From NCBI GenBank assembly GCA_965249725.1, contig CBDFMQ010000002.1, positions 64,001-128,000 on the forward strand: a stretch of DNA of 64,000 bases, given 5' to 3'. The stretch comes from Longimicrobiales bacterium. GTDB taxonomy: Bacteria; Gemmatimonadota; Gemmatimonadetes; Longimicrobiales; Gaopeijiaceae. Below are positions 19,756 through 39,964 of this stretch, one piece after another. The notes under the pieces are model-generated. The model searched no databases, had not been told where the DNA came from, and was given only the letters and a program-made list of their open reading frames with translations. The first letter of the stretch is position 1. The number at the start of each line of letters is the position of its first letter. Both the position numbers and the translations under genes were made by a program.

Positions 19756-19828
19756 GGGGCCATAGCTCAGTTGGGAGAGCGCTGGCTTTGCAAGCCAGAG
19801 GTCGCCGGTTCGATCCCGGCTGGCTCCA
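19756..19828 (+). tRNA. tRNA-Ala (TGC)
   Basis: Acceptor GGGGCCA/TGGCTCC with G3:U70, anticodon arm CTGGC-TT-TGC-AA-GCCAG, T arm GGTTCGATCCC. Confidence 0.97.
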
Positions 19829-19941
19829 CTAGAAGCTACCCGCTGATCGGTTCACATCGTCGCAGGACTACGTCACGTTCGTGTCGAATCGGGCGGGCGC
19901 GTGGACATTGTGAGGCGGTACTTGGGACCGGGCGTGAATCA

Positions 19942-20262
19942 ATGATCAGGATGCCGAGCGCACGCTTTTCAGTCGGTGACATCGTGCAACACAAGTTGTT
20001 CGATTACCGAGGTGTTGTCGTCCAGGTAGATATGCACTTCCAAGGAACCGAGGCATGGTATAGAGCCGTGGCCCGTTCGAGGCCACCCAAGCACCAACCT
20101 TGGTATCACATATTGCCGCACACAGCCCAACATCAAACGTATGTAGCCGAACGAAACCTCGAACCTGATCACAGTGGCCTCCCCATCCAACATCCCCTTG
20201 TGGAGCGCTACTTCACTGAGTTCAGCGAGGGGCGGTACGTCGAAGATGTTCAGATCCACTAG
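19942..20262 (+). CDS. hspQ: heat shock protein HspQ (YccV-like)
   Basis: FSVGDIVQHKLFDYRGVVV..D..F..WY..RPPKHQPWYHIL..TYVAERNL..HPLVERYF. Confidence 0.9.
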   Translation: MIRMPSARFSVGDIVQHKLFDYRGVVVQVDMHFQGTEAWYRAVARSRPPKHQPWYHILPHTAQHQTYVAERNLEPDHSGLPIQHPLVERYFTEFSEGRYVEDVQIH

Positions 20263-20422
20263 TGATTATGCAATGTGACAAGCATTTGCCGCTGACGCTG
20301 TGGACACGCCCCGGGGGCTAGGCAACTCGTCGGTCCCGGGCGGCGTTTGACGGTGTCACGGCGGTGCTTCCGCCAGACCCCGAATCCGTGCGAGGGCTAC
20401 CTCTTGGCGCTACACTGCACGC

Positions 20423-20749
20423 ATGGGATTCCTGGACACGAGTTCTTTCCGTCGCTTCGCGGCGGATAAGATGCAGAAAGTGAACCTGTTCGAGACGCCG
20501 CAGATGTTTTGTGATGTGTACTGCCTCGAGCCAGGCCAGGCGCAGAAGGTGCACACCCACGCCGGGGCCACGAAGTTCTACTACGTGATCGAGGGCGAGG
20601 GCACCTTCACCATCGGGGATGCCAGGCGCACCCTCGAACCCGGCCACCTCGTTTGGTGCGTGCCCGACGAGCCGCACGGGGCAGAAAACTGCGCCAATGT
20701 GCCGCTGGTGGTACTCGTTTCGATGGCACCCAACCCGAACTTGCTGTAG
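20423..20749 (+). CDS. cupin domain protein
   Basis: PGQAQKVHTH..YYVIEGEG..PGHLV..EPHG. Confidence 0.88.
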   Translation: MGFLDTSSFRRFAADKMQKVNLFETPQMFCDVYCLEPGQAQKVHTHAGATKFYYVIEGEGTFTIGDARRTLEPGHLVWCVPDEPHGAENCANVPLVVLVSMAPNPNLL

Positions 20750-20757
20750 CACCTAAG

Positions 20758-20778
20758 CCATAGCTTGAGCGCATGGGC
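20758..20778 (+). repeat. hairpin repeat, partial copy 2 (right half)
   Basis: CCATAGCTTGAGCGCATGGGC, 8 bp after the cupin stop codon. Confidence 0.85.
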
Positions 20779-21272
20779 ATACCGTCTTTCGGGTTCGACT
20801 CAGTTCAGACTCGCACTCCTCGGCTCACCATCCGCTGCGAGTATCCAGGCAGCAGCATGGAGCCCACGGAGGTGATCTTCAGGCTCTCACCGCGCTACGG
20901 CATCCACTCTGCTCGTGAAGCCCACGATTGGTTTCTGGGCATGATACAAGCTGCGAGCGCCGCAAGTGGTCAATGAGCGTAGTGTTGAACTCGTGCGATT
21001 GGCCGAGAAGTTGGAGGGATTGTAGGCCCCTACAGTCACTACATAGGAGAGAGGGTCCGATGACCGACGAACCAGTTGTCTGCGCTGACTGCGGGGAGGT
21101 AATCACGCCCCCTATCTTGGATGGCACTTACGAGATCTCATCGGCTGACAGTAAACCAAGACACATAGGTGGGTGCCCGAGCCAGGAAGGGAACGAGTTT
21201 GTTTGGAGGCCTCCACCAAGCAACACCGCCCATTACCCTGACTTGACCAGGGTGAAACCGGATAGGCCCATC

Positions 21273-21319
21273 CAGCCATCGCCCAACCTCAGCATCACCC
21301 ATAGCTTGAGCGCATGGGC
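21273..21319 (+). repeat. ~45-bp hairpin repeat, copy 3
   Basis: CAGCCATCGCCCAACCTCAGCATCACCCATAGCTTGAGCGCATGGGC. Confidence 0.95.
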
Positions 21320-21429
21320 GGTTCGACGTGAATTCGAGGAGCGGCTAGGTAGGATTTGGCACGCCCCTCGATCCGCAGTGAGCGTATCGTCAGATGCTCG
21401 CCCACCCGCAAACCTCCTAGACAGAGGAG

Positions 21430-22203
21430 ATGCAACTCATGTTTAACGGTCGCGCCTCGAATAGAGTTCAATGGGGAGCGCCGCTGGCAAGAGCCGATCC
21501 CGCGCTGCGCGCTCTTTTCACGGGCTACCTGTTGGTCATCGCGGTCGGTCTCCTGATGTCCTTTGCCCAGATACTTCTCACGCACGGAATGGCGGACGGG
21601 AAGTTTGGGCTTTCGGTGGACGACATTGTCTATAGCTACTATGGCAATCGTGAGGGCAGCCGAATCGAGGCGAAGCTGCAAGGCTCGATGAAGCTCATGG
21701 CTTCCGAGCAAGATCGAGCCGTGATCATCAGGTGGGTGCGCATGGGATCTCCACGCGACGTGTGGGAATCGCAAGTCCGCGAAGTCGTCTCCGCGAACTG
21801 CACGCGTTGCCACGGCACGTTGCCCGGACTAGTGGAGTACCGGAGCTATGAGGGCATCAAGTCGGTATCGCAGATCGATGAAGGTGCCACGGTGCCAACG
21901 CTGGCGCGCGTCTCCCACATCCACCTCTTCGGCATCGCATTCATCTTCTTCTTTGTGTGTCTCATCTTCGCGCAGGCCACGGGCATCCCAAACTGGCTTC
22001 GCGTTACCGCCATAGCGTCGCCGTATCTCTTTCTCTGCATCGACGTGTTCTCATGGTGGGCGACAAAGTGGGTTCCGTCCGCGGCCTACCTGACTTTGCT
22101 CGCAGGCTTCGGCTATGCTGCTGCTTCGGGCTTCATGATCTCGACGTCGCTCTACCAGCTTTGTTGGCCGAGTTTCGTACGTTCTCAGGATCTGAGTGAT
22201 TAG
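21430..22203 (+). CDS. membrane protein with c-type heme motif
   Basis: N-terminal TM, CTRCHG (CxxCH), SHIHLFGI, three further TM helices. Confidence 0.8.
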   Translation: MQLMFNGRASNRVQWGAPLARADPALRALFTGYLLVIAVGLLMSFAQILLTHGMADGKFGLSVDDIVYSYYGNREGSRIEAKLQGSMKLMASEQDRAVIIRWVRMGSPRDVWESQVREVVSANCTRCHGTLPGLVEYRSYEGIKSVSQIDEGATVPTLARVSHIHLFGIAFIFFFVCLIFAQATGIPNWLRVTAIASPYLFLCIDVFSWWATKWVPSAAYLTLLAGFGYAAASGFMISTSLYQLCWPSFVRSQDLSD

Positions 22204-22220
22204 CAGCCTCGCATCGATCC

Positions 22221-22264
22221 CGGCCATCGCCCAACTTCAGCATCACCCATAGCTTGAGCGCATG
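22221..22264 (+). repeat. ~45-bp hairpin repeat, copy 4
   Basis: CGGCCATCGCCCAACTTCAGCATCACCCATAGCTTGAGCGCATG, 17 bp after the stop codon at 22203. Confidence 0.93.
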
Positions 22265-22411
22265 CGTATGGCTCGAGCGTCAGCTTTGCATCCCGTTTGC
22301 ATCCCGAAAGACGGTTAAGAACGGTGATCGGACGCCTTAGGAGCGGTTAGGAACGGGCACGAAAGGCAGAAACCAGGCGGGAATCCCCGAAATCGGGCCT
22401 GTATGAACACT

Positions 22412-22456
22412 CTTTGCAAGCCAGAGGTCGCCGGTTCGATCCCGGCTGGCTCCACT
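22412..22456 (+). repeat. att site: exact 45-bp copy of the tRNA-Ala 3' half
   Basis: CTTTGCAAGCCAGAGGTCGCCGGTTCGATCCCGGCTGGCTCCACT is identical to 19786-19830. Confidence 0.97.
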
Positions 22457-22916
22457 GATGTAAAGCGTTTGTTCATATAGTGTTACTGGAGACCCCCTTG
22501 GTCAGCCGGCTGAGGGGGTCTCTATGTTTCTCTCTATGTTGAGCGCGGTTCCCAGGTACGAAGGGTGATGCTCAGGCCATGTCACTTGGATTGTATTGGG
22601 TGACGATCAGGCGGTCTCTGGTGCGACTCCAACTGGTGATCGCCTTGTCCCGGCCTTGCAGATTCGGGCTCTAGGCCCTGACAACTGTTCGAGATCCTGC
22701 GATCGCAGGAAAGGTCCGACGCCCAAGCTAACGGACGGTCTAGTTAAACCTATGTGACAACGGGCTGTCGAACCCTATGATCACTCAGAATCTACGGAAT
22801 TTTCGACATACAACATGACATGCCATGAGACGGGGGCGGAGGCTTGCCAGCGACTATGCGACCCAGCGGGATCGAGGCGCTTGCAACTTCGCACAGATTA
22901 GTCGCATCTTGCGGCC

Positions 22917-24437
22917 ATGTCCGACTCCGTGATCCGCCGGAACATTGCCCTCCCCTTAGGCTTGGTCTTCGTTCTGCCCCTTGTCTTGAATTGCGGGCCT
23001 CCTCCCACGGCCTCCCCACGGCCGGTCCTGACCGTTTTACAGTCATCCGTGTCGATTGGCGATCCCCATATCGCGAGTGACGCGGCCGGCCCGCTGAGCA
23101 TCATCTTCACCATCTATGAAGCGCTGGTAGGCCTGGATGAGGAAGGGAACTACCAACCTTCCCTGGCTGAGGGATGGGAAGTCGGAGAGGATGCCCGGAC
23201 CTGGACATTCTCTTTGCGCGATGGCGTGAAGTTTCATAACGGCGAGGTGCTGAGCGCCTCCGACGTCGTCGCCACCTTGGGCCGGGTTCTGGACCCGGCG
23301 ATCGGGGGCGTTCTCGGAACGCAGGGTGTTTACATCAGCTACTTGGGAACCGCCGAGATCTCCGCTCTCGATGACTCGACGGTGAGGATCGTCACCGAAA
23401 ACCCCATGGCGGATCTCCTAGATCTTCTGGTATCGATGCCGATCAGCCCCGCCGGCGAGTTGGACAAATTACCCGGGGAATATGTGGGCAGTGGCCCGTA
23501 CGAGATCGTCGAGCAGAGTGATACCCGGGTTGTCGTCGCGGCACATGACGAGTACTGGGGGAAAACTCCGGATTACCGGGAGATCAACTGGATCGCCGAA
23601 GGCGATTCAGGAAAGCGGGTAGAGGCCCTCCTGAACGGTCAGGCCGATATCGCATCGGGAATCGGGATGCAGGGCTGGGAGCGGATCACCGAGGATGGTA
23701 GGGCCGTGGCCCATGAGATGGATAGCGGATTGGCCATCATCTTCATGGCCAACGCACTCGAGGGGCCCAGCCGGGACCGCCGCGTGCGGCAGGCCTTGAA
23801 CTATGCCCTCGACGTGGATGAGATCATCGCCGAAATCAAGCATGGAGCCGCGCAACGGCTCAGCGGCTACCTGACCCCGCATCACTTTGGTTACAACCCC
23901 GAGACTCCCCGTTATCCCTACGATCCCGACAAGGCGCGGAGCCTCCTTGCGGAGGCCGGTTACGAAGACGGACTGACGCTGGTCTTCGATATTCCCACGG
24001 TGAGTCCCGATGAAATGCCCGAGTTGGGGCGAATGATGGTGGAACAATACAGGCGGGTGGGGATCACCCTGGAGATCGTCGAGCACCCGGACCGGCCGGC
24101 CTACTCGGAGATGGTTCGGGAGAAGAGGATCAACGACGCCGCTGGTTTCGACTCCAGTCCACGGAGCACCTATCGTGTCCTGAGGGAGAAGATCCACTCC
24201 GGGCTCAGGGGTCCCTGGTGGGAGGGGTACGAAAACGAAGAGGTGGACTCCCTGATCGAGAAAGCGCAGGCGACCGTCTCCGATGCGGATCGGCAGGCCA
24301 TCTACCGCCAGATCTATACGATCATCCGTGATGACGCCCCTTGGATCTTTCTCTATAACCCCACCCTGTATTGGGGCGTCGGGCCAACAATGAAGGACTG
24401 GAAGCCGAGGGCGGACGGCCTGCTCATCTTTTCCTGA
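22917..24437 (+). CDS. ABC transporter substrate-binding protein, family 5 (peptide/nickel), orphan
   Basis: IYEALV..PSLAEGWE..WTFSLRDGVKFHNGE, GSGPY, VRQALNYALD, YPYDPDKARSLL. No permease or ATPase adjacent. Confidence 0.92.
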   Translation: MSDSVIRRNIALPLGLVFVLPLVLNCGPPPTASPRPVLTVLQSSVSIGDPHIASDAAGPLSIIFTIYEALVGLDEEGNYQPSLAEGWEVGEDARTWTFSLRDGVKFHNGEVLSASDVVATLGRVLDPAIGGVLGTQGVYISYLGTAEISALDDSTVRIVTENPMADLLDLLVSMPISPAGELDKLPGEYVGSGPYEIVEQSDTRVVVAAHDEYWGKTPDYREINWIAEGDSGKRVEALLNGQADIASGIGMQGWERITEDGRAVAHEMDSGLAIIFMANALEGPSRDRRVRQALNYALDVDEIIAEIKHGAAQRLSGYLTPHHFGYNPETPRYPYDPDKARSLLAEAGYEDGLTLVFDIPTVSPDEMPELGRMMVEQYRRVGITLEIVEHPDRPAYSEMVREKRINDAAGFDSSPRSTYRVLREKIHSGLRGPWWEGYENEEVDSLIEKAQATVSDADRQAIYRQIYTIIRDDAPWIFLYNPTLYWGVGPTMKDWKPRADGLLIFS

Positions 24438-24596
24438 TCGCGGGACGAACAGCGGCCCTCAAGGTCTTCTGGAACCTATAACACGCAGTGCCTGAGGGCG
24501 TCGCCCCCCAGCCCACTGGTCCTGACGATGCCACGGTCGTAAACTCAGGCTCCAGGCCTGCGTGTGACATACAATCTCCGTATAGAGGGAACGGCC

Positions 24597-26135
24597 ATGC
24601 GCTACGCACAGCGACCGGGGGTTCCCGGAGTGCCCGAATTGGCCTTTGCCGGGATTAACCTGATGGCTGGCGCGGCCGCGGGCTCGATCCTCCGCCTGGC
24701 GGCGGTCGCCCTGACGGCCCTCGCGGGAATCGCTTTGACCGCCCCAAGCGCCCGAGCCCAGGTGACCTGCTTCGGCGACCCGACCTGCGTCCAGCCGGTC
24801 ACGGGCTACCCCATCGGCCGGCCCGGAACGCCCAACATCGAGGTGGTCTCGCACCTTCCCCTGCCCGGCGTGCCGTTCAGCCACACCGACATCGAGATCG
24901 AGCAGGACATGTCGCGGCCCTTCGTATACATCGCGCAGGGTTACGGTTCATCGGGCTTCTACGCCCTCAGCACCGAGGATCCGGAGAGGCCGCGGGTGCT
25001 GTATCGGTGGACGATCGACAACCCGGACCTGCACCTCGGCTCGGGCTGTAAGGACATCAAGTACGCCAAGGCCGAGGGGCGCTACTACGTGATTATATCC
25101 TGTCAGTTCGCGCAGGGGGGACCGGACGCCGAGCTGGGCGCGATCCTCTTCGACGTTACGGGGCTGCCGGATGGGTCAACGGTTCGCAAGGTCGCGGAGC
25201 TACGACTTCCGGACATGCCCTTGGGTTTCCATAACATCTTCGCCTACCGGCACTCCAACGGCCGTTCTCTGCTCCTTGCGACCACCAATTCCGAAGACGC
25301 CTTCATCTACGACATCGCGCAGCTGGCGGCGGGTGTCACGGACCCGGTCTCCGCGATCGCCGTCCCGGAGGCTTCGTGGGTTCCAGCCCAACCAGGAGCC
25401 GGCGGGGCGCGACCTGCCGGCCGAATGAATCAGTGGCACGACATGTACACCGGGTATCTGCCCGAGGCAGCCCAGGATCGCTTCTACGGCGCCGGGGCTG
25501 GCGGCTTCCACGTTTTCGACATGACCGACGTGGAGAACCCGAGACTGCTCACGTCCGTTACGGGAATCCCCGGGGTCGAGAACGGACACACCTTCACTCC
25601 AACGCCAGACGGTCGGTACGCTCTCGGCATGCCCGCGCCGACGTATCAACATTCGCCCGTGCGCTTTTTTGATCTTCGGCCTCCGGGCTCAGAGGGACAG
25701 ACGCCCAACATCGTCCGAGGCTCAGGCATCGGAGCCTGGATCCCGAAGTTCGGGGGCGCGACTCACAACCACGAGATCCGTTGGCCGTACGTTTTCATCT
25801 CCGCCCAGGATGACGGGCTCCAGATTGTGAACATGGCCGACCCCACGCGGCCGTTCACGGTCGGGTACTACCACACCCGACAGGGCCCCATGCTTCACGA
25901 TCCCCTGGGCCGGAACCCGTCACAGGCAACCACCGGCTACATCTACAACGGTGCGTGGGGCGTGGACATCCGGAACGAAGACGGCCTCATTGTGGTGAGC
26001 GACCAGAATTCCGGCTTCTGGGCGTTCCGCCTGGAGGGGTTTCAGGGATGGAACGGGAACAACTGGGGGATGCCGAACATCTCGAGCGCACAGTACTGGG
26101 ACGATGGTCCGGTGAGGCCAGAGCAAATCTGGTAG
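24597..26135 (+). CDS. secreted His-rich LVIVD-like beta-propeller, paralogue 2
   Basis: FHNIFAYRHSNG, WHD, GHTFTPTPDG, THNHEIRWPY, LQIVNMADP, WGMPNISSAQYWDDGP. Confidence 0.85.
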   Translation: MRYAQRPGVPGVPELAFAGINLMAGAAAGSILRLAAVALTALAGIALTAPSARAQVTCFGDPTCVQPVTGYPIGRPGTPNIEVVSHLPLPGVPFSHTDIEIEQDMSRPFVYIAQGYGSSGFYALSTEDPERPRVLYRWTIDNPDLHLGSGCKDIKYAKAEGRYYVIISCQFAQGGPDAELGAILFDVTGLPDGSTVRKVAELRLPDMPLGFHNIFAYRHSNGRSLLLATTNSEDAFIYDIAQLAAGVTDPVSAIAVPEASWVPAQPGAGGARPAGRMNQWHDMYTGYLPEAAQDRFYGAGAGGFHVFDMTDVENPRLLTSVTGIPGVENGHTFTPTPDGRYALGMPAPTYQHSPVRFFDLRPPGSEGQTPNIVRGSGIGAWIPKFGGATHNHEIRWPYVFISAQDDGLQIVNMADPTRPFTVGYYHTRQGPMLHDPLGRNPSQATTGYIYNGAWGVDIRNEDGLIVVSDQNSGFWAFRLEGFQGWNGNNWGMPNISSAQYWDDGPVRPEQIW

Positions 26136-26713
26136 GCCCGTTACATCGACCAGCACTGGACCATTCTGCCTGACGCCTCAAGCCTGCACCCGGCTTCCGC
26201 CGGACCGCAGGATTGTGAACGCTTTGAGCATGGCGGCCCCTGCGCACTAGTGCCTGACCCAGGTGGAGGATTGAACCCTCCCGGTCCAGCACGAGCTCAG
26301 CCGTGCCGCTCCCGTCCGCCCGCTTGGCCCACAGATCACGCTGTCCTGAACGATTCGATGTAAACGTCAGGGTTGCTCGCCAGACTCCGCAGACGCGCCA
26401 CCGGGTCCTGAGACCTTGTCAAAACTGGACTTGGGCATGTTCGATGTGGTTCTTTCCCTTCAGGGGTACCTCCTGACACTTGATGCCCGCACTGCTCACC
26501 GCCCAACCTCAGCAGTGAGGCAGGCGGTCCTCGACACGGCTCTGCTTGCGATTGGGCTCTCCAGTCTCGACCTGGGCGATCTCTTTTCGGGGCCATGTCT
26601 CGTGTGCCGACTGATCCTGCAGCGGATCTGCGTCAGAAGCTCGACGGACTACACCTCGGTACGCCACGTGATGATCAAGTTTTAGCCCTGGTGTCAGGGT
26701 GGCCCCATCGACC

Positions 26714-27220
26714 TCAGGACCCTTCCTCGACCACACGTGCGTCCGATTCGTGCGACTGGACGATCTTCCAGACCCCACCCTCACTCCGCCAGACCGCCGA
26801 AAAGCTGCGGTCGCGAAGTGGCCGGGCATTCCCCTCAATGTCCTTCGAAACGTATCGATAGATGCCCATGAAGGCCGCTCCGTCCCGCCCCATAGGAATG
26901 ACGCGTGCGTCGATCCACTCCCCCTCGAAGGAGGTCATCCCCCTGGTGAAGGCCCCGAAGTAGCCCTCTCGAACCGCCTCCCGATCAGCGTAGATGAACG
27001 CCGCCTCCGCGTAGGTCAGGTCTTCCCGCTCCGTGAAGTGCTCCATCACGCGGTCCACGTCCAGGGCCCGGTGGGTATCCAGGAACGACTCGGCCCTCGC
27101 TAAAACCTCCGCCTCGATTCCGGCTTTCTCGTCAGCGGTGAGGGCGGAGGGCGACGGGGGAGCGCAGGCCCCCAGCAAGGCAACCAGCACGAACGCCAAC
27201 GACAATGATCTTCTCTGCAT
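26714..27220 (-). CDS. NTF2/SnoaL-like (DUF4440-type) lipoprotein
   Basis: Lipobox LGAC, ALDVDRVMEHF, SAVWRSEGGVWKIVQSHES. RBS GGAGG. Confidence 0.85.
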   Translation of the reverse strand: MQRRSLSLAFVLVALLGACAPPSPSALTADEKAGIEAEVLARAESFLDTHRALDVDRVMEHFTEREDLTYAEAAFIYADREAVREGYFGAFTRGMTSFEGEWIDARVIPMGRDGAAFMGIYRYVSKDIEGNARPLRDRSFSAVWRSEGGVWKIVQSHESDARVVEEGS

Positions 27221-27266
27221 ACTGCCTCCTATCCGTGGAGACGGAACCCGGTGGGGATATCTGCCC

Positions 27267-28682
27267 TCATTCGGAGATAGGCCTCTGCACCCCATCAGGA
27301 CCGTTGTCCCAATCCTGCACGCTCGAGTTGTTGGGCATCCCCCAGTCATGGCCGTTCCAGCCGTCGAACCCGTCCATCTTGAAGACCCAGAAGCCTGTCT
27401 TCATGTCACTTGTGACAATAACTCCGTCCACGTTGCGTACATCGACGCCCCAAGCCCCGTCGTACACATCCCATGTGAAGTTGCCTGTGAGAGTCATGTC
27501 CTGACCCTTATCGTTGACGCCAGGATAGGTGTCGTAGTAGGCCACGGTGTACGGGTTCGTGGGGTCCATCATGTTGAACACCGAGAGACCCGTCACGTAG
27601 CCCGAGACGAAAACGTACGGCCAGCGCACTTCGTGGTTGTGGGCTACCGTCTCCCAGTCCGCATGCCAAGCTCCAATCGGCCGGTTGATGTTGACGACCT
27701 CACCCCGAGACGCGGACTCGAGCCCCTCCTTCATGTCGAAGATGCGCAGCGGCTGGTATTGCCATTCCGCTTCGCCCACCGCGTAGCGGCCGTCCGGTGT
27801 GGGCGTGAAGGTGTGTCCCCAGTTGAAGCCCGGCACATGGGTGATGGTGAGCAGGAGGTTGGGCTCCTCGGGGCGTGAAATGTCCCACACGTAATAACCT
27901 CCTCCCCCTCCGCCGTAGAACCTATCCTGCTGGGTAGCCGGATCGAAGCCCGCGTAGAGATCGTGATACCCCGTGGAGCGGTTCGCCGGATCGGGCGGAA
28001 CTCCAATGGTGCCGATGTATCCCTGGTCCGGGTCCCCAGCCAGGAATCTCCCCATGTCGAACATTTTGGCACCCTGGTGCGTCGCCAGGAGGATGGGTCG
28101 CCCGTCGGAGTGCTTGTACATGAAGATGTTGTGGAACCCGCCGCCACCCTCTGGACGGATGCGGCCCACCTCGCGGACTTTGGACCCGTCCGGGAGCCCG
28201 GTCACGTCGAGCACGATAGCGGCCACGTCGGAATCCGGTCCGCCTGGTCGGAAGAAGACGCCCTGGACGAGATAGTATCTTCCGTCGTGCTTGAAGTACT
28301 TCGAGTCCTGCCCGCCGCCTTGGTGGAGCTCCACGTTCTCGATCCGCCACTCGTGGATGACCTCGGCATTCTCCGGATCCTCGAGATTGATCACGTCGAA
28401 GCCCCCCACACCCCTCCGGGTCACGTAGGCGTAGGGCCGGTCCTCGTCCTGCTCGAGCTCGACGTCGGATATGCCGAGCACTTCCGAGCCCGAACCCACT
28501 TCGCCGATCTCGGTGCCGAGCGTGAGGTGCGAGAGAATCTGGATGTTGCTGCTCCCCCGCTGTCCAGGTTGGCGTGGATACGTCACGTCCACCTGGGCGA
28601 GGACACCGGCAGGGAGGACGACAGCGAAGGAAATGACCAGGGCAAGTCCTGTCCAAAGGGTCGACTCCGCTTTGTGCGACAT
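27267..28682 (-). CDS. secreted His-rich LVIVD-like beta-propeller, paralogue 3
   Basis: FHNIFMYKHSDG, GYHD, WGHTFTPTPDG, AHNHEVRWPY, WGMPNNSSVQDWDNGP. Confidence 0.88.
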   Translation of the reverse strand: MSHKAESTLWTGLALVISFAVVLPAGVLAQVDVTYPRQPGQRGSSNIQILSHLTLGTEIGEVGSGSEVLGISDVELEQDEDRPYAYVTRRGVGGFDVINLEDPENAEVIHEWRIENVELHQGGGQDSKYFKHDGRYYLVQGVFFRPGGPDSDVAAIVLDVTGLPDGSKVREVGRIRPEGGGGFHNIFMYKHSDGRPILLATHQGAKMFDMGRFLAGDPDQGYIGTIGVPPDPANRSTGYHDLYAGFDPATQQDRFYGGGGGGYYVWDISRPEEPNLLLTITHVPGFNWGHTFTPTPDGRYAVGEAEWQYQPLRIFDMKEGLESASRGEVVNINRPIGAWHADWETVAHNHEVRWPYVFVSGYVTGLSVFNMMDPTNPYTVAYYDTYPGVNDKGQDMTLTGNFTWDVYDGAWGVDVRNVDGVIVTSDMKTGFWVFKMDGFDGWNGHDWGMPNNSSVQDWDNGPDGVQRPISE

Positions 28683-28729
28683 TTTGTTACCTCCGGTCGT
28701 TTCCTGTCCCGGCGATGAGGCGCTGCACG

Positions 28730-30121: not shown

Positions 30122-30320
30122 CTGGCACCTCCGGATCTTTATGCGGCCTACGCACGGTCCGTATCATCTCGCCATCTCGGCGAGGAGCACCGGGGCGATG
30201 ACACCGGCCGGCGAATGGCGGGTGCCTCGGTTGATTGGAGAAGCACCGCACAGTCCTCCCACGGCGCTCTCCCTGCTTCCGCTGACGAAGACGAGCCACT
30301 CCGTCGTTGCTAGATTTCCG

Positions 30321-31721: not shown

Positions 31722-31783
31722 TGAACCACCTCCGCCCGATGAGTTTCCCCCTCCAACGCCCCCTCCCTCTGCACCGCGGGGTC

Positions 31784-33163
31784 CTACGAGACGGGCCTCG
31801 GAACGGGACCGTTATCCCAATCCTGGACACTCGAGATGTTGGGCATGCCCCAATCCTCTCCATTCCATCCTTCGAATCCGTCCATCTTCATGATCCACAG
31901 GCCCGTGATGAAGCTACTCACCACGATGGTGCCGTCTGCGTTGCGCACGTCGACGCCCCAGGCCCCCTGGAAGGTCGTGGCCGGATTGACGAGCGTGCCG
32001 TCAGGTCCATCCCAGGTGTCGTAGAATCCGACCGTGTACGGGTTGGTCGGGTCCATCATGTTGAAGACCTGCATCCCGTCGTCCAATGCGGCCACGAACA
32101 CATAAGGCCACCGCACTTCGTGGTTGTGCGAAAAGTTCTTCCAGTTGGCCGTCCAGGCTCCGATGGGTCGCGTGATGGTCGGAACTTCGCCGTCGAGACC
32201 CGGCTTCAGGTCGAAGATGCGCAGAGGCGCCGTCCGATACTCGGTTTCGCCCACGAAGTAACGGCCGTCCGGCGTGGGTGTGATCGTGTGCCCGCTCCGG
32301 ATTCCGGAGATGTTCGTCGCCGACGTAAGGAAGTTCGGGTTGCCCAAATCGGTGATGTCGTAGACGTAGTAACCGCCGCCGCCGGCCCCGTAGAAGCGAT
32401 CCTGTCCGCTCTCGGGGTGGTACCCGACGTAGTAGTCGTGGTAACCCCTCGCCTGCGCGGGGTCCGGATTCGGCACGCGCGCAATGAGCCCGAAGTCCGG
32501 GTCACCGGCCAGGAACTGGTCGAGGTCGTACACGTGTGCCGCAGGCTCAGAGATCGTGGCGAAGAGAAGGTTGCGGCCGTCGGAGTGCTTGTAGGCGAAG
32601 ATGTTGTGGAAGCCGCCCTGCTGAGCGGGACCCTGCATGCGTCCCACCTCTCTCACCTGCGACGGGTCCGGCAGGCCGGTCACGTCGAAGATGATGGCGC
32701 CAAGGTCGGAGTCCGGTCCGCCAGCCCTGAACTGGAAGGACTGGATGTAGTAATAGCGGCCGCCGGACTTGAAGTACTTTCCGTCCAGCGCTCCGGAACC
32801 CTGATGAAGCATGGGGTTGTCCACCACCCACTTGTAGATGACTTCCGCGTTCTCGGGGTCCTCGATACTGATGATCGAGAATCCACTGGGAGCGAAGCGG
32901 CTGGACACGTAGACGTAGGGGCGGTCCATGTCCTGTTCCAGTTCGATGTCTGCGGTCCGCCGTCCGTACGAATCGATTCCCGCAGCGTCCGAGTTGGCCA
33001 AAGGCCTGGCACCACCCAAGGGCACATGGGACAGAACGTGGACGTTTCTGCTGCCCTGCTCGCCCGGAGCATGCTGCGCGTTCGCCGGCGCCGCATACGG
33101 AACCGCGAGCGCCGTTGCGAGAGTCGCGGTCCCGAATCGGGCGCACATGTCTCTCCAACTCAT
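31784..33163 (-). CDS. secreted His-rich LVIVD-like beta-propeller, paralogue 6
   Basis: FHNIFAYKHSDG, GYHD, SGHT, SHNHEVRWPY. Lies directly downstream of susD. Confidence 0.88.
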   Translation of the reverse strand: MSWRDMCARFGTATLATALAVPYAAPANAQHAPGEQGSRNVHVLSHVPLGGARPLANSDAAGIDSYGRRTADIELEQDMDRPYVYVSSRFAPSGFSIISIEDPENAEVIYKWVVDNPMLHQGSGALDGKYFKSGGRYYYIQSFQFRAGGPDSDLGAIIFDVTGLPDPSQVREVGRMQGPAQQGGFHNIFAYKHSDGRNLLFATISEPAAHVYDLDQFLAGDPDFGLIARVPNPDPAQARGYHDYYVGYHPESGQDRFYGAGGGGYYVYDITDLGNPNFLTSATNISGIRSGHTITPTPDGRYFVGETEYRTAPLRIFDLKPGLDGEVPTITRPIGAWTANWKNFSHNHEVRWPYVFVAALDDGMQVFNMMDPTNPYTVGFYDTWDGPDGTLVNPATTFQGAWGVDVRNADGTIVVSSFITGLWIMKMDGFEGWNGEDWGMPNISSVQDWDNGPVPRPVS

Positions 33164-33224: not shown

Positions 33225-34646
33225 CTACGGGCCTGGGTTCCACCAGACTCGGTCACCCAGGTCCGCTCCGCCCTGACGGCTGATGGCCGTCTGCAAGTTG
33301 GCGCTGTTCAGGGACTGCTCTTCCTCCGAATACTTGAGCCTTCTCGGGATCATGCCTCCCGTCACGTTGTCCGGCCCGGCCACCAGGTTCGGAGACCCAA
33401 ACCGCCGCCAGCTCGAGTACGCCTCGATCCCCTGGCCGAAGAAGCCGATCCACATCTGGAGTCCGATCTGTTCGAGTCCGGTCCCCGCATTGTATGCGAC
33501 CCTGGGATTGGCCAGATACGCGTCGATATCAGCGCTGTCGATGTCGTACCACTCCATGCTGGCCCGGATCGCGTCCTGATAGAGCTGTCCGGCGTTACCG
33601 CTGGTATAGCCCCGGGCGGCGGCCTCGGCCTCCAGGAAGAGGACCTCGGAGTAGGACATGAGCATAGATGGATTGTCCAGATCCCGGACGAAGCGCTCGC
33701 CCACCTTGGACCGTGCCGTGAAGGGAATGCCGTGCCCATCCTTCAACCCGCTCTCGTGACCGAGGAACTCATCCTCATCATTGGGACGAGCGAAGACCGG
33801 CAGGCGGGGGTCAGCGTATGACGCCAGCGTATCAACGATGGTCGCGCTGATCCGGCCTCCGCCCGGCCGCTCGACCTCGCCGGTGAACCACGGGTTGGAG
33901 CTCCCTAGCTCGTTCAGCCAGCGAAAGATGGCCTGATCGTCGTTGCTGCCGAACACCCCGGCACCTATCGCCGCCACGGCTTCCGCCTGGGCCGTCCCGG
34001 GATCGACGTCCGTGAGCCTCATGGCCATCCGGAGCCTCAGCGAGTTCGCGAACATCTTCCAGCGCGCCATGTCTCCCTCGTAGATCAGGTCCGCATCCTC
34101 GAAGTCCGGACCCGAAGTGGTTATGAGGGTGGCGGCAGCCGCGAGATCGTTGAGGAGGCCTTCATAGACCTGTTGCTGCGAATCGTATTGCGGCTGTGTG
34201 TTTTCGTCGCCCTGCAGGGCCTGGGAATACGGAACGTCTCCCCAGAGGTCCGTTACGTTCTGGTATAGCCACGCCTTCATGATCGCACCCACGGCCTGGT
34301 CGTTGGGCCGTCCCGCCTCACCGGACTTCATCTCGATCTCTCCGAAGTCCTGCATGGGACCCGCATAGTAGGCCGTCCACGTGCCGCTGTAGTCGCGCAC
34401 GTCGTAGCGCCCATCCCAGGCGTACTCGATGCGCGAAGTGTGCTGCGCCCACAGGTTGAGGAAGTTGTTGCCCAGGACCTGACTGGCGGCGTCCCTCATG
34501 GCAGATGAGACCAGGAACTCGGCGTTCACGTCTGTGGGTGCATTCGGGTTGGTGTTGATCCCCGCGAAGTCCTCGGTGCAACCCACCAGGATCGCGCCCG
34601 CAAGGGCTACCGCGGCTGGGACCTTGAGAAGTTTGAGCGTCCGCAT
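33225..34646 (-). CDS. susD: SusD/RagB family lipoprotein (island copy)
   Basis: Start MRTLKLLK..LVGC lipobox, INTNPN, TDLWGDVPYSQA, FANSLRLRMAMR, RVWW. Confidence 0.95.
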   Translation of the reverse strand: MRTLKLLKVPAAVALAGAILVGCTEDFAGINTNPNAPTDVNAEFLVSSAMRDAASQVLGNNFLNLWAQHTSRIEYAWDGRYDVRDYSGTWTAYYAGPMQDFGEIEMKSGEAGRPNDQAVGAIMKAWLYQNVTDLWGDVPYSQALQGDENTQPQYDSQQQVYEGLLNDLAAAATLITTSGPDFEDADLIYEGDMARWKMFANSLRLRMAMRLTDVDPGTAQAEAVAAIGAGVFGSNDDQAIFRWLNELGSSNPWFTGEVERPGGGRISATIVDTLASYADPRLPVFARPNDEDEFLGHESGLKDGHGIPFTARSKVGERFVRDLDNPSMLMSYSEVLFLEAEAAARGYTSGNAGQLYQDAIRASMEWYDIDSADIDAYLANPRVAYNAGTGLEQIGLQMWIGFFGQGIEAYSSWRRFGSPNLVAGPDNVTGGMIPRRLKYSEEEQSLNSANLQTAISRQGGADLGDRVWWNPGP

Positions 34647-34717
34647 GATATATCGCTCCTTCAACGTGTCGTCGGAATCGTCGTTTGGTCCTCCACTCTG
34701 TTCCCTCCGCCGCGTAA

Positions 34718-37700
34718 TCACGGCGTTATCGACAGGTTGATCCCGAACGTGCGCCCGGATGGGAGCTGGCCGTATTCGACCCCCTGGAAGTTCGAGTTGT
34801 CGAATCCGGTCTCCGGATCCACGTGAGGTATGTTGCCCTTGAGGAGGATCAGGTTCCTGCCCACGAGCGACATTCTGGCGTTCTCGAACGGAAGCCTGCT
34901 CACCAGACCGGTGGGGAAGTCGAACGACAGCGTCACCTCCCGGAGCTTGATGAAGGTGGCGTCGTAGACGTTCCCCTCCTGCTTGTTCCACTGGGTGTGC
35001 GCGAACCGCTCGGCCGTGACCCAGATGGCGTTCTGAGATCCGTCCTCCCTGACTCCGTCGATGAGCACGCACGGCTCGTCCAGGGCACATGTTCTCTCCG
35101 GCACCGCCCTCACGAGGTCGCCCCTGAAGTCTACGATGGCGCCCTCCCGCCGCCCGATGGCGCTTTCTACATTGACGCCGGAGTACTGGCCCCACTGGTT
35201 CGTGACGGAGAATATCTCGCCGCCCTGCCTCCAGTCGACGAGGAAGCTCAGAGTCAGGTCGCGGTAGGAGATGCTGTTCCGGATACCAGCCAGCCAGTCG
35301 GGCGTGTAGTGGCCCATGATGGATTTGCTGGACTCACCCTGAAGAAGCCCCTGGTCGGAGACCACAACCTGGCCCTGGGAATTCCTCTTGATCTTGAACC
35401 CCACTAGCGCCCCATACGGCTCGCCGGGCCGGGCTTCGACGGTCGTGCGCCAAAACTCGCCGAGGATGATGCTCTCCAGGTCGCCGGTGAGCTCCAAGAC
35501 CTCGCTTTGGTTCTTGGAGAAGTTCGCCGTAACGTCCCACCGCAGCGCGCCGGTGACCGGAGTGGCGCTCAGGACGACTTCAACGCCCTTGTTCGCGATC
35601 TTCCCCGCGTTCAGGACCTGGCTCGTGAATCCGCTGGCAGACGAGACTTGGACGCCCAGGATCTGATCCGTCGTCTCGGTCTGGTAGTACGTCAAGTCGA
35701 GCGCCACTCGGTCGTCGGCCGTTCGCAAGTCCGCTCCCACCTCCCAGGACACGGTGGACTCGGGTCGCAAGCCGCTGTTCGGGATGGTGTTGTTCACACT
35801 GAACCCCGAGCGTGTGCCGAACGGATTGGCGGGCGACAGCACCGAGGCGAGTTGATAAGGCGCAGCGTCGTTGCCGACCTTTGCCCAACTTGCCCGCAGC
35901 TTGCCGTAAGAGAGGAAGCTGCTGAAGGCGTCCGTGACGTCGGTGAACACCAAGCTGGTGGAGACCGAGGGGTAGAAGTAGGAGTTGTTGACCGTGGGAA
36001 GCGTCGACGACCAGTCGTTTCTCCCGGTGACGTCGAGGAACAGGTAATCCCTCCACGAGAACGTCGCGAATCCGTACAGGGAGTTGACCTCCTTTTTCTC
36101 TACCCAATTCCTGATGACCGCCGGCTGCGACACGTTCGAGACGTTGTAGATTCCCGGCACGTTCAGGTTGTTGGACGTCACGACGTCGATGTTCTCGTCG
36201 TTGGTTCGGTGGTTTCCACCCACACGGAATGCGACGTTGAGGTCCGAGGTCAGGTCCTTTTGAGCAGCCACCAGGAAGTCGGTGTTGATCTCCTGCCTGA
36301 AGAGTCCGATGTCGTCGAAGCCGCCGTCGATATCACGGGCGCTCGGCGGACGGGTCTCCTTTCTGTTCTCTTGATACCAATCCGTGCCAGACCGCAGCAT
36401 GACGCTCAGATAATCGTTGATCTGGTAGCTCGCCTCCAGATGGCCCGTTACCCGATCTCTATTGAGGGCGTTGTTCCGGGAGTTGCTCTCCCAATAGGGG
36501 TTGTCATGGTAGTTGTAATTCCAGTTCGCGTACTCCCCCGACTCTACCTGGTCCGGGGCCTGTCCGAACTGCTCGAGGCGATGGGTCGAGACCTGGCGGC
36601 CGAACCAGATGTATCCCTGTAGGGGGTTGTAGCCCTCGTAGCCGACCTCCGGGATGTGCTGCCCTCGGCGAGCCGTGTAGGTGGTGGCTCCGCTCACGAC
36701 AAGCTTGTCGGTCACGTCGGCGCTGGCCGACAGGAAGATGGCGGTCCGGTCGTTGGCGTGCCCCGGCACCATTCCGTTCTGATCCATCCGCGTCAGCGAG
36801 AGCCGGGCGTTCGTCCTGTCGCTCGTCGTTGCGACGCTGAAGTTCGTGTCCCAGGTGGAGGCGGACTTGAAGTAGTCCCTCACGTTGAACGGCTTGGGCG
36901 TGAAGGGCACCGCCGAGCCGTCGGAGTACCACGCCGCCTGGAGCCGTCCGTCCATGGGGGGACCCCAGCTCTCATCTGTTCCGTCGTTCTGTCCACCACC
37001 GAAGCCGTCGACGTACCCGAACAGGCCACTGCTCCCCTGGCCGTACTGATTCTGGTAGGTGGGCATCTTGAGGGGGGTACGCATGGTGAAGTTGGTGCTG
37101 ACCGAGACGTCAACCCTCGGTCCCCCGCCCGCCATAGCACCTTTCCTGGTAGTGATGACCACGGCGCCGTTCGAGGCGCGGGAGCCATAAAGCGCTGCCG
37201 CGTTCGCACCCTTGAGGACCGAGACCGACTCGATGTCCATGGGGTTGAGGTCCTGGACCGCATTCCCGTAGTCCGATCCCTTCGGCTGGGGGGTCGACGG
37301 GTCGGAGCCGCCCCGGCGCGCCCCGCCGCGGAGATAGCCGTCCGAGGAGTTGTCGACTGGGATCCCGTCGATGATGAAGAGCGGTTGGTTCTCTCCCGCG
37401 ATAGAGTTGGCTCCCCGGAGCACGATTCGCGAGGAGCCGCCGACTGGGCCCGTGTTCGTGACCTGCGCTCCGGCGACCTGTCCAGCGATGGCGTTGACGA
37501 TGTTAGACTCGCGAGCCTCGACGAGCTCCTCCCGATCGATCCCCTGTACAGCAAAGCCCAGCGCCCTTTGCTCGCGCGTGATCCCGAGCGCCGTGACGAG
37601 AAGGCCCTCGAGAGCCACGGCCTCCTGGTCCAGGCGGAAGTTCAGCGTTGCTGTACCCCCGGCCGCGACGCCGACCGTCGTAACGAGGGTGCCGTACCCG

Positions 37701-37957
37701 ATCAACTCCACTCGGACCGTGTGGGTGCCCGCCGGGACCAAGTTCATCAGGTACCGGCCCTGGGCATTGGTGAGGGTGCCGAGTTGAACCGACGGAATCG
37801 AGACCTGGACGCCGTTGAGCGGTTCGCTCGTGGCGGCGTCCAGCACCTGGCCGGTGACGGTACCGGTCTGTGCGGTGACCTGCGTCGCTCCCAGCGCAAG
37901 CAAAGCGCTCAATGCCACGCCGACCAGGGCTGGTACTCTGACTCTGTAGTGTCTCAT
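34718..37957 (-). CDS. susC: SusC/RagA family TonB-dependent transporter (island copy)
   Basis: VTALGITRE, NQPLFIIDGIP, VLKGANAAALYGSRA, RNDWSSTLP, FIKLREV. RBS AGGAGG before ATG 37957. Confidence 0.95.
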   Translation of the reverse strand: MRHYRVRVPALVGVALSALLALGATQVTAQTGTVTGQVLDAATSEPLNGVQVSIPSVQLGTLTNAQGRYLMNLVPAGTHTVRVELIGYGTLVTTVGVAAGGTATLNFRLDQEAVALEGLLVTALGITREQRALGFAVQGIDREELVEARESNIVNAIAGQVAGAQVTNTGPVGGSSRIVLRGANSIAGENQPLFIIDGIPVDNSSDGYLRGGARRGGSDPSTPQPKGSDYGNAVQDLNPMDIESVSVLKGANAAALYGSRASNGAVVITTRKGAMAGGGPRVDVSVSTNFTMRTPLKMPTYQNQYGQGSSGLFGYVDGFGGGQNDGTDESWGPPMDGRLQAAWYSDGSAVPFTPKPFNVRDYFKSASTWDTNFSVATTSDRTNARLSLTRMDQNGMVPGHANDRTAIFLSASADVTDKLVVSGATTYTARRGQHIPEVGYEGYNPLQGYIWFGRQVSTHRLEQFGQAPDQVESGEYANWNYNYHDNPYWESNSRNNALNRDRVTGHLEASYQINDYLSVMLRSGTDWYQENRKETRPPSARDIDGGFDDIGLFRQEINTDFLVAAQKDLTSDLNVAFRVGGNHRTNDENIDVVTSNNLNVPGIYNVSNVSQPAVIRNWVEKKEVNSLYGFATFSWRDYLFLDVTGRNDWSSTLPTVNNSYFYPSVSTSLVFTDVTDAFSSFLSYGKLRASWAKVGNDAAPYQLASVLSPANPFGTRSGFSVNNTIPNSGLRPESTVSWEVGADLRTADDRVALDLTYYQTETTDQILGVQVSSASGFTSQVLNAGKIANKGVEVVLSATPVTGALRWDVTANFSKNQSEVLELTGDLESIILGEFWRTTVEARPGEPYGALVGFKIKRNSQGQVVVSDQGLLQGESSKSIMGHYTPDWLAGIRNSISYRDLTLSFLVDWRQGGEIFSVTNQWGQYSGVNVESAIGRREGAIVDFRGDLVRAVPERTCALDEPCVLIDGVREDGSQNAIWVTAERFAHTQWNKQEGNVYDATFIKLREVTLSFDFPTGLVSRLPFENARMSLVGRNLILLKGNIPHVDPETGFDNSNFQGVEYGQLPSGRTFGINLSITP

Positions 37958-38068
37958 AATCTTCCTCCTAAGCGTGGTACGGCTCACAACTTCGGTGTAT
38001 CTGGCGAACGGCGAGGATTGTTGTTCGGCGGCCGTAACATGACCGTATACGAGCCCCCGCGAGTGCCG

Positions 38069-38656
38069 CTACAGGGCCAGCACCCAGCCGATCCCGGCGC
38101 TGATGACGGCGTCCGTCTGCAGCTCCGTGATGGCATGATTCGAGTACATCCAGGCCGCGCCTTGCGCGAAAAACTGGACAGATGATCCGGGTGGTGTGTA
38201 CCGCAAGCCCCCACCCAGCAGCCCTGCGCCCTCGGTTACGTTGTACGCGTAGTCCGGGGCCTTGCGGTCAAGGGCCACGAAGCCCCCGCCGCCGAAAACG
38301 TAGGGGGCCAGCCCAGAATCGAGCGGCAGATTGAGCTCGAGGCTCGTGCCGAAATACAGGCGCTGGAAGTCGACGTCCTCGTTCACGGGCGCGGCCTCGC
38401 GCCCCGAGTTCTTCACCCAGGCGAAGTCGCCGCGGATGGTGACGTTCTCGTACAGCTGTAGCCCGATCCCACCACCGACCTGAATGCCTCCGTCGTAGGA
38501 CACGTCACGGAACACATCGAAGTCTTCAGGAGAATTCAGAAAGCCCGCAGACGCGAACAAAATCAGGGCCGACTCGTCTTCGTCCTGAGCGGTGAGTGGA
38601 GCCGCGGCAAGCACGGCGAGGACTCCAGAGGAGAGAAGCAAACGAGAGAGAGACAT
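38069..38656 (-). CDS. small outer-membrane beta-barrel protein
   Basis: Signal peptide, alternating beta strands, APYVFGGGG, GGGLRY. Confidence 0.75.
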   Translation of the reverse strand: MSLSRLLLSSGVLAVLAAAPLTAQDEDESALILFASAGFLNSPEDFDVFRDVSYDGGIQVGGGIGLQLYENVTIRGDFAWVKNSGREAAPVNEDVDFQRLYFGTSLELNLPLDSGLAPYVFGGGGFVALDRKAPDYAYNVTEGAGLLGGGLRYTPPGSSVQFFAQGAAWMYSNHAITELQTDAVISAGIGWVLAL

Positions 38657-38775
38657 ATCCCGGTCCTCCTTTCGTCGCCCGGAAGTGGAGAGCCGGGCGG
38701 CCGTAAACATCGCAGGAGTCGGCTAGAGGCCGCTGAGGATTGGGATCCTGCGCGTGGGCCGTAAAGACTTGCCAC

Positions 38776-38804
38776 CATATAGCATGCCTGGCGGAGCGCG
38801 TCAA
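38776..38804 (-). promoter_or_regulatory. possible sigma70 promoter for the OMP-susCD-propeller gene run
   Basis: Minus strand TTGACG-17bp-TATATG with extended TGn. Confidence 0.4.
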
Positions 38805-38896
38805 TAGCCTGAAGGTGCGCTCGATCGACCCACTTCCGCTTGACTGCCTCCGACCTGTCAGCTACGTTCGCCCTTGCACACTCAGGCTGGAGTATC

Positions 38897-39283
38897 ATGG
38901 GTCGCGTGGCAACCTTCCTGGTGCTTGTCTTTCTCGGCTCGTCTTGCGCCTCACCCGGCGCCGGTGAGCGGCCTAGTACATCAAGGAACGAGATCGCCCT
39001 CGAGGAGATCAGAACGACGTCGGCGCGGAACGCCTACGAGATCGTGGAGGCGCTTCGGCCTCAGTGGCTGCGAGCCCGTGGGCCAATCGGGCTCACCGAT
39101 CCGACGCCAAGCGTCCCGGACATCTATCTTGACGGTACGCAGTTCGGGAATCTCGAGGCCCTCCGGTCCATCAACGTGAACAACGTCCGGCATGTCTATT
39201 TCTGGGGCCCCGGACCTGCCATGGTGCGCTACGGCGACGGGCATCCCAGGGGAATCATCGAGGTGATCGTCAGCGGCCGCTGA
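38897..39283 (+). CDS. small lipoprotein, standalone TonB plug-like domain
   Basis: Hydrophobic leader ending GSSC, IALEEI..NAYEIVEALRPQWL..IYLDG..RYGDGHPRGIIEV. Confidence 0.75.
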   Translation: MGRVATFLVLVFLGSSCASPGAGERPSTSRNEIALEEIRTTSARNAYEIVEALRPQWLRARGPIGLTDPTPSVPDIYLDGTQFGNLEALRSINVNNVRHVYFWGPGPAMVRYGDGHPRGIIEVIVSGR

Positions 39284-39539
39284 CCGTTGCCGTAGCACGT
39301 ACGTTGAGGTGCCCTAGCACGTCCCTCCCGATGCGTATCTGGTGAGTTTTCGGAAACTCGGATGGTTCGTGCCGGGGTTCATGGACATCGTTGATGCGCA
39401 TGATTTCGAATCCCTTGATGAAGTGCTAGCCTCGCATTTCCTGCTGCACCTTGGCGTCACGCTCGACCGCGATAGATATCGATCTCTCCTATGACGTAGC
39501 CTCGGACGGTCGGTTTCTCATGATTCAGTCGAACTTCGA

Positions 39540-39660
39540 TGACATGGACCTAATCGTGGTCACCAACTTCTTCGAGGAGTTGAAGGAACGGGTGCCGAAT
39601 TGAGCCGTCAGGTCCCTTGGCTGCGCGTCTTCGTGGAAGGCGTGGTGATCGGCAGGGAAG
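39540..39660 (+). pseudogene. gene debris: kinase-like C-terminus and N-terminus of a following membrane protein
   Basis: LIVVTNFFEELKERVPN* followed by MSRQVPWLRVFVEGVVI, cut off at the island arm motif. Confidence 0.5.
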
Positions 39661-39791
39661 GGGTCTCTATGTTTTCTCTCTATGTTCGGATCCATCAAAC
39701 ACGGTGGGAACTGGGAGACACATACCGCAGAATAGCGGCGATTTCCCCAGAACCACGCCAAACGGGTGGAAACAGGGGTCTCTGGGAGACG

Positions 39792-39836
39792 CTTTGCAAG
39801 CCAGAGGTTGCCGGTTCGATCCCGGCTGGCTCCACT
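39792..39836 (+). repeat. att site: second 45-bp copy of the tRNA-Ala 3' half (1 mismatch)
   Basis: CTTTGCAAGCCAGAGGTTGCCGGTTCGATCCCGGCTGGCTCCACT. Confidence 0.97.
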
Positions 39837-39964
39837 GATGTAAAGCGTTGAGCTGCATGGTGTTACTGGAGACTCCGTCGGTCAGTCGGCCGAGGGGTCT
39901 CTATGTCTGTCTGGCACGAGCGCGGGCAGCTTGCCCTGCACTTACCTACAGGGCATGGTGCGGC

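Follow-up and report, generated by a model that had tools for sequence, protein, structure and literature searches.

An integrase-free island with matched arms in a stack at a tRNA-Ala gene of Longimicrobiales, possibly moved in trans

How does a 17.4-kb block of chromosomal genes come to lie between two copies of a tRNA 3′ half when it encodes no integrase? The question is raised by a stretch of 64,000 nucleotides (nt) from a Longimicrobiales bacterium of the phylum Gemmatimonadota (positions 64,001 to 128,000 of CBDFMQ010000002.1), hereafter the window, which is part of contig C3 of a 4.16-Mb genome in three contigs (C2 and C3 are named below). An earlier reading of the bare sequence, hereafter the original prediction, had placed tandem islands behind the tRNA-Ala(TGC) gene of this window, the largest of which, island 2, had matched arm sites and no integrase. 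We studied this locus and its counterparts in related genomes, and we favour, with a probability of roughly 0.6, the reading that island 2 belongs to a constitutively integrase-less family of elements moved by an integrase that is supplied in trans. The features on which the argument rests are the following.

19756..19829, + strand: tRNA-Ala(TGC), integration target of the stacked elements
22412..22456, + strand: exact copy of the tRNA 3′ half, junction of island 1 and island 2
22457..22547, + strand: left (short) arm of island 2, with CTCTATGTT 63 and 75 nt past the tRNA half
39646..39791, + strand: right (long) arm of island 2, its repeats ending 118 and 105 nt short of the core
39792..39836, + strand: copy of the tRNA 3′ half with one mismatch, junction of island 2 and island 3
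39837..39912, + strand: left arm of island 3, with one repeat remaining, followed by an ADOP permease gene and a PALP gene

The 45 bases of the tRNA-Ala gene that start at the anticodon-loop closing pair (19786-19830) recur exactly at 22412-22456 and with a single change (39809 C>T) at 39792-39836, so that successive 3′ halves are spaced by 2626 and then 17380; no further long copy was found anywhere in the genome. About 77 bases 3′ of the two copies are 79% identical to each other. The repeat CTCTATGTT forms tandem pairs at 22520/22532 and 39665/39678 and stands alone at 39899, while GGGGNCTCTATGT occurs four times in the genome, at 22515, 39660 and 39894 in the window and at C3:14122. The original prediction had given the two tRNA-half copies, related DNA of about 70 bp behind each and a tandem repeat inside both ends of island 2; all of these were reproduced, coordinates included. 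The stacking of three elements (islands 1, 2 and 3) that it proposed was supported. Island 2 (22412-39791, 17.4 kb) carries complete left and right arms with tandem CTCTATGTT. Its left arm is 90% identical to the arm that follows tRNA-Ala in a relative, G058, and its right arm 78% identical over 158 nt to the G058 right arm, with no other such arm in the genome. An Rfam scan of 12000-44000 found two tRNAs and nothing else, and sequence composition was little informative (GC content 62.2% vs 64.1%; among 238 windows, its tetranucleotide distance ranked at the 95th percentile).

A tyrosine-integrase profile run over all six frames of the window matched at 12632-13729 and 19267-19656 and gave no match in 19830-64000, and the 14 PF00589 matches and the single PF07508 match of the genome all lie outside the islands. 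Likewise, no recombinase, relaxase or part of a type IV secretion system was identified among the 11 open reading frames (ORFs) of island 2 with Pfam and NCBIfam.

The same arms are found in related bacteria. Across relatives, 27 left and 13 right arms align nearly without gaps, with the left repeats 63/75 nt past the tRNA half and the right repeats 105/118 nt before the core. Arm models matched about a tenth of the family genomes (left 18 of 151; right 17 of 151, some of these being related 5′-type ends), and an exact arm pattern gave 25 matches in 10 of 314 family genomes, with none in 314 for the reversed pattern used as control. Under strict filters, with 20 candidates scored per genome, none of 150 further genomes sampled from the phylum, 16 of them members of the family, yielded a right arm. 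A search of genome contigs gave six loci, all in Longimicrobiales, and a search of metagenome contigs gave 33 matches, three of them real (L094, L098 and L110), none of the three with an integrase inside. The family targets tRNA-Ala(TGC), tRNA-Pro(TGG) and tRNA-Val(TAC). The comparison of tRNA-Ala loci suggested by the original prediction showed the same arms after tRNA-Ala in other genera, and eroded sites such as that of G035.

We found no integrase or integrase remnant within 2 kb inside any of 44 left and 25 right arms, using BLASTP and a profile built from 23 integrases of these genomes. These counts derive from 47 left and 28 right arms, three of each being excluded for less than 1 kb of flank; the excluded ones likewise gave no matches. 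Among 119 flanking frames scanned with Pfam, no site-specific recombinase was identified, while insertion sequence (IS) transposases and ordinary genes were seen and a control integrase was recovered at E 1.5e-12. Twelve units of 3.3-23 kb are bounded on both sides, although two have a damaged right end and one left end was placed from the tRNA half alone. They gave no integrase match (Pfam was run on 63 ORFs), and all-against-all translated comparison identified no shared gene, the arms, IS pieces and kinase scraps being all that they have in common. In two sister 3′-type families of the same genomes, an integrase or its tail lies 6-33 nt inside the left arm at five of five sites, 15 of 31 sites having been left unclassified by the script and uncounted. 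Similarly, the short arms of 5′-type elements have an integrase or a remnant at nine of 12 loci. In a pathogen survey, 92% of att-delimited islands are reported to have an integrase within 2 kb, a loose baseline as the set was chosen for conjugation features (10.64898/2026.01.13.699239). Taken together, these results support the lack of integrase as a family-wide trait and not a single case; the integrase-free island 2 of the original prediction is borne out and extended to its relatives.

The arms also bound whole rows of units. In G311, six junctions that are 80-93% alike bound five units of 14.7, 10.9, 9.2, 9.1 and 16.9 kb, each with different cargo, and the tRNA halves in this row resemble the tRNA-Ala of genus g62, not that of G311 itself. 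A comparable row stands at tRNA-Val halves in G122. Left arms directly follow a full tRNA, the youngest position, in 12 of 47 cases after one false positive was removed, and integrase is absent there too. Since blocks without integrase are delimited by these ends in related bacteria as well, island 2 likely belongs to a family of hitch-hiking islands. Mobility is further favoured by the cargo of island 3: metagenome contig L110 has, after a left arm, DNA with 97.9% identity to 42822-45014, and the element upstream of it is a different one.

We propose that each unit would arrive as a circle consisting of a right arm, a 7-nt anticodon-loop core, a tRNA 3′ half and a left arm. A tyrosine integrase encoded elsewhere, from a clan whose elements share this arm geometry, would act as the putative helper, excising the unit and inserting it at the tRNA anticodon loop. 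Insertion would restore the tRNA and shift older units downstream, the oldest being outermost (here the order would be island 3, island 2, island 1). In the lambda-type attP structure, integrase binds arm sites beside the core, and by analogy the CTMYATGTT pairs are putative integrase arm-binding sites, as their geometry suggests. The repeats of the long arm are spaced 105/118 nt from the core in the island 2 family, 106/117 in island 1 and 105/117 at the 5′-type end on C2, and the arm families with matching long-arm spacing, that of island 1 and the 5′-type, possess integrases. Every integrase subfamily seen carries its own repeat after the stop codon, and the nearest to the island 2 family is AACATGCACAC of the 5′-type subfamily. 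More tentatively, at somewhat below even odds, these elements could be described as integrase satellites, in which two arms and a tRNA half capture 3-23 kb chromosome blocks of related genera and stack them at tRNA-Ala, -Pro or -Val by means of a borrowed integrase.

Several observations weigh against movement in trans. The family's repeat was found after the stop codon in none of 30 clan-integrase loci examined, two of these stops probably being misplaced by frameshifts, and each of the 25 exact matches in the 314 family genomes is an element end beside which no integrase was seen in the sequence fetched. The intact clan integrases of this genome bear other repeats, and therefore island 2 may have no helper here. 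In viral contigs one helper pattern gave no match and another gave 26, none fitting the arm profiles; none was found in plasmids. Looking beyond the window for further arm copies with an integrase beside them, as the original prediction advised, yielded the copies in relatives and not the integrase. The circle and empty-site joints that it looked for were both absent among the 15 listed of 27 joints in assembled contigs, in which rare forms are dropped; one joint (39591-22515) seen in a single run was rejected as a circle, the letters in between belonging to the C3:14122 site. The movement that it describes is accordingly putative. Moreover, no complete unit was found in two different places, and one G093 unit matches C3:11339-14092 with 86% identity over 2.75 kb, as would be expected if it had been inherited vertically within the genus. 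Erosion is evident as well: the G035 site and island 1 lost their left arms through deletion into kinase genes, orphan arms exist (C3:14122), and the assembly contains no right arm for island 3. In L268 an intact integrase ends 2.3 kb inside a left arm, beyond an IS and a packaging gene. Finally, the arm alignments were seeded from hand-picked sequences, and the arm counts are non-independent because the genomes are kin.

The most serious alternative is that the islands are relics resembling cis-mobilisable elements (CIMEs), in which an integrase once present in each unit or in a common ancestor was deleted, leaving units now immobile or moved with a neighbour or by homologous recombination. 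Such a route is established for CIMEs (PMC5704250), and 15 ssrA islands without an integration module are described in Dehalococcoides (PMC3146451). In the loci studied here, lone arms, rearrangements and deletions next to the tRNA are frequent, island 2 varies little across four runs, and no helper was found at the 30 clan-integrase loci. Nevertheless, we consider this explanation unlikely, though well worth keeping in view. Decay in the sister families leaves integrase tails at the arm, against none at 44 left arms here; for the five successive intact-arm units of G311, which show no remains of a common gene, the integrase would have to have been lost cleanly five times; and the use of three tRNA targets suggests that circles without integrase were inserted site-specifically more than once. 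No autonomous member was found among the arms and clan-integrase loci examined, yet an early integrase loss in the common ancestor of the arm family may have occurred.

It is very improbable that the elements are autonomous, with a recombinase unseen by our profiles or distant from the arms. About one third of the flanking frames have no Pfam match, contig ends cut many units and the L268 integrase lies 2.3 kb from its arm; against this, the 12 bounded units share no gene and each large ORF of island 2 has another identity, which largely refutes the idea for island 2. That the repeats reflect assembly artefact or chance we regard as close to negligible. No short-read contig bridges the 45-nt repeat at 22412, and the native upstream flank of tRNA-Ala lies on another contig. 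Contigs assembled from four runs of four studies, one run possibly being the source sample, nevertheless cover every one of the 30 bins across 19960-39959 and, in independent runs, extend into the 22412 repeat from either flank; the arms follow tRNA-Ala in other genera, and the reversed pattern gave no matches.

Integrase-less islands are already known, in the form of CIMEs and the microcin H47 island. By the Islander criteria (PMC4383910), island 2 has a tRNA gene and a displaced 3′ fragment downstream in the same orientation at a distance of 2-200 kb, and lacks the integrase inside, making it island-like in behaviour and outside the definition; Islander excludes integrase-less islands by rule. 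Like CIMEs and tandem accretions of the ICESt1/ICESt3 type (PMC5704250), island 2 has no integration or transfer genes and is stacked at a tRNA; as judged from family-like arms and unchanged spacing, it keeps attL and attR. CIMEs are described there as decay products moved in cis, whereas here a whole arm family has no trace of integrase, even in the youngest position; the neighbours of island 2 have no working integrase, island 1 having none and the upstream one being broken. The closest working model is the microcin H47 island of E. coli, which is about 13 kb long, without integrase or excisionase, and recombined in trans (PMC3191183). Island 2, too, has no recombinase of its own. The H47 island carries a single cargo between direct repeats that are long and imperfect and contain four crossover segments (PMC3191183), whereas the direct repeat of the island 2 family is a 45-nt tRNA half, its two arms differ from each other apart from the 9-nt repeats, its cargo is varied, it has three tRNA targets and it forms tandem rows; the mobility of island 2 is a prediction.

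The general pattern is covered by additive flexible genomic islands of Alteromonas (PMC4119200) and Ca. Actinomarinales (PMC7771536), although the available text of these papers defines no arm sites or element family. The ssrA islands of Dehalococcoides are alike in standing in tandem at one tRNA gene, about half without integration genes, and in carrying metabolic cargo; they differ in a serine recombinase, a 20-bp repeat and the presence of autonomous family members (PMC3146451). Tycheposons (bioRxiv 10.1101/2020.12.28.424599) share tRNA targets, partial tRNA scars, the pushing of old units inward by new ones and nutrient-related cargo; they are defined by their own integrase, many with replication genes, and island 2 has neither. 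In the literature searched, mostly outside subscription journals, neither this arm family nor any island of Longimicrobiales was found described. The locus also differs from an integron cassette array with attC-bounded units and IntI at its head, in that the unit ends are tRNA halves and arms. Repeats of the form CTAAC...GTTAG, which we take to be attC-like, are present elsewhere in the genome and absent from 19830-48000; small clusters lie in tRNA islands genome-wide, at 14715-14795 (the window copy, truncated) and about 24 other places.

What does island 2 carry? Its genes and the scraps at its right end are listed below.

22917..24437, + strand: family 5 ABC solute-binding protein (PF00496, E 7e-70)
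24564..26135, + strand: LVIVD-repeat/choice-of-anchor-B-like protein, grouping with orthologues of core locus C3:789 kb
26714..27349, − strand: SnoaL/DUF4440 protein
27267..33163, − strand: four LVIVD-repeat paralogues (27267-28682, 28730-30121, 30321-31721 and 31784-33163)
33225..34700, − strand: SusD-like lipoprotein (PF12771, E 3e-105; start approximate)
34718..37987, − strand: SusC/RagA TonB-dependent transporter (TIGR04056 above cut-off)
38069-38710, − strand: outer-membrane beta-barrel gene (PF13505 weak), syntenic with SusCD in G056
38840-39283, + strand: small divergent gene, syntenic with SusCD in G056
39440..39651, + strand: scraps, the 3′ end of a kinase-PD40 gene and the 5′ end of another multicopy gene

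Most of this cargo, namely SusC, SusD and LVIVD genes, is by sequence a core chromosomal block in another genus that is partly absent from this genome's own core site. Among 313 family genomes, with two candidates scored per genome, 33228-39300 matched one at E<=1e-60. This genome, G056, belongs to another genus and contains a 12-kb block, 80-82% identical, with the small gene, the barrel gene, SusC, SusD and three LVIVD genes. There its neighbours on the two sides match C3:265953-295229 and C3:298290-356189 of the present genome, a core-syntenic position, and 80 kb of sequence contains neither an arm nor a tRNA. The corresponding core sites of this genome and of G035 hold LVIVD genes only, and SusD finds matches of at best 46-48% identity in G035 and G093. 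In a tree of 22 proteins, the LVIVD genes of the island fall with orthologues from three core loci, each gene with those of one locus; the one next to susD groups with that of G056 (92/88, under the starred threshold). Its identity to the native copy is 86%, and the G035 gene is equally far from that copy (87%). The cargo is thus a mosaic: its genes are second copies that have diverged, and relatives would be their simplest source. Other units likewise carry ordinary genes, and matched this genome over 0-38% of unit length at 67-96% (one 90%).

The original prediction of a whole nutrient-uptake locus was too generous: the mosaic comprises the SusCD-LVIVD block, LVIVD genes of two other loci, a solute-binding protein gene that is orphaned, as island 2 has no permease or ATPase genes, and the SnoaL gene. 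A polysaccharide utilisation locus consists of an adjacent susC-susD pair with neighbouring carbohydrate-active enzymes; island 2 has the pair and not the enzymes, and no Pfam match to a glycoside hydrolase or similar enzyme was found among the island ORFs. The LVIVD paralogues score below the TIGR04312 cut-off and match Atlas LVIVD clusters at 0.98 (the last paralogue, 31784-33163, was tested), with no solved-structure relative at E<0.001. About 45 TBLASTN matches to the LVIVD-repeat family were observed in the G000 genome, often in rows beside SusCD pairs. At 24499-24508 the contig of run X15 has an insertion of about 2.9 kb with a 10-nt overlap, and the X1 and X16 contigs break there, likely a strain-variable IS insertion.

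The neighbours of island 2 were also characterised. Island 1 consists of the following.

19830..22411, + strand: island 1, a relic, with the left arm absent and a kinase-gene scrap directly 3′ of the tRNA
19945-20262: hspQ
20423-20749: cupin gene
21430-22203: 257-amino-acid protein without assignment
22285-22305: TTTGCATCCC repeats of the right arm

The 2.6-kb island 1 of the original prediction is present, although it belongs to another arm family than island 2. Its right end is 86% identical over 110 nt to the right end of the genome's integrase-bearing tRNA-Val island, and by sequence it is a relic of this TTTGCATCCC family, since its left arm was lost. A repeat of about 50 nt (18235-18292, 20758-20779, 21267-21319 and 22215-22272) has 14 genome matches, none of them outside island regions, and a few more in relatives; small units have their edge at it, and it may be a site or a gene scrap. 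One such unit, with hspQ (19897-20266), has a counterpart of 98.4% identity at C3:1959529-1959160 that begins right at this repeat.

Upstream of the tRNA, two features were identified.

18617..19394, − strand: partial IS256-family transposase (PF00872), 99.4% identical to C3:1020225-1021000, abutting and truncating the integrase remnant
19366..19689, + strand: tyrosine-integrase C-terminal remnant with a pair of AACGTGCACAC arm repeats, forming the right end of another, 5′-type element

The remnant (19366-19656; profile match E 1.7e-24) is 66% identical to a tRNA-Thr integrase remnant. Four elements meet at the locus, a 5′-type end upstream and then islands 1, 2 and 3; the original prediction lacked this fourth, of which the tRNA itself is the end and whose broken integrase lies directly upstream. 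The displaced 5′ tRNA half and long arm of this element, with the same AACGTGCACAC repeats, are at C2:302908, preceded by the DNA that precedes tRNA-Ala in G093 and G128, and therefore the locus was rearranged. The intact integrase at 12647-13732 belongs to a tRNA-Arg(TCT) island and its flanks lack CTCTATGTT; it was therefore rejected as the cognate enzyme of island 2. That island (12647-14307) also has a downstream helix-turn-helix gene, and its tRNA 3′ fragment (C3:836121) lies 760 kb away; tRNA-Ile fragments too lie far from their gene, the island ends being rearrangement points.

Other observations concern the arms and the surroundings. A conserved stretch of about 100 nt (22605-22655; L024, L037, L048, L002 and L036) stands behind many left arms and, in addition, in front of some kinase genes; it was rejected as an integrase remnant, stop codons occurring in every frame among the copies, and as an RNA, with two-sided change in one of 19 predicted pairs. 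A 4.1-kb unit of the island 2 family in G058 (L024:15729-19358) encodes a trypsin-like protease, a DUF4365 protein and, beside the latter, a 473-amino-acid frame without a Pfam match that we presume to resemble short prokaryotic Argonaute; a SIR2-like gene lies in the next unit. A tandem array with a 13-nt unit was seen at 62513-62967, and about 19 tRNA genes are clustered at G000 C3:1903222-1906030 and L163:3145-5331, and also in G003, beside tRNA-Ala(TGC).

Integrase-less islands are usually dismissed as decayed, and the sister-family control in the same genomes separates decay from design. What is new here is this control, which marks the lack of integrase as a family trait, and the tracing of the cargo to its core origin. 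If a trans helper exists, uncultured Gemmatimonadota would have a route for swapping operon-sized pieces of the core chromosome, here a SusCD block absent from the genome's own core site, and the arm pair, compact as it is, accommodated 3-23 kb of cargo. If integrase satellites are real, they would do at the scale of operons what the integron does, and island finders that depend on an integrase would miss them.

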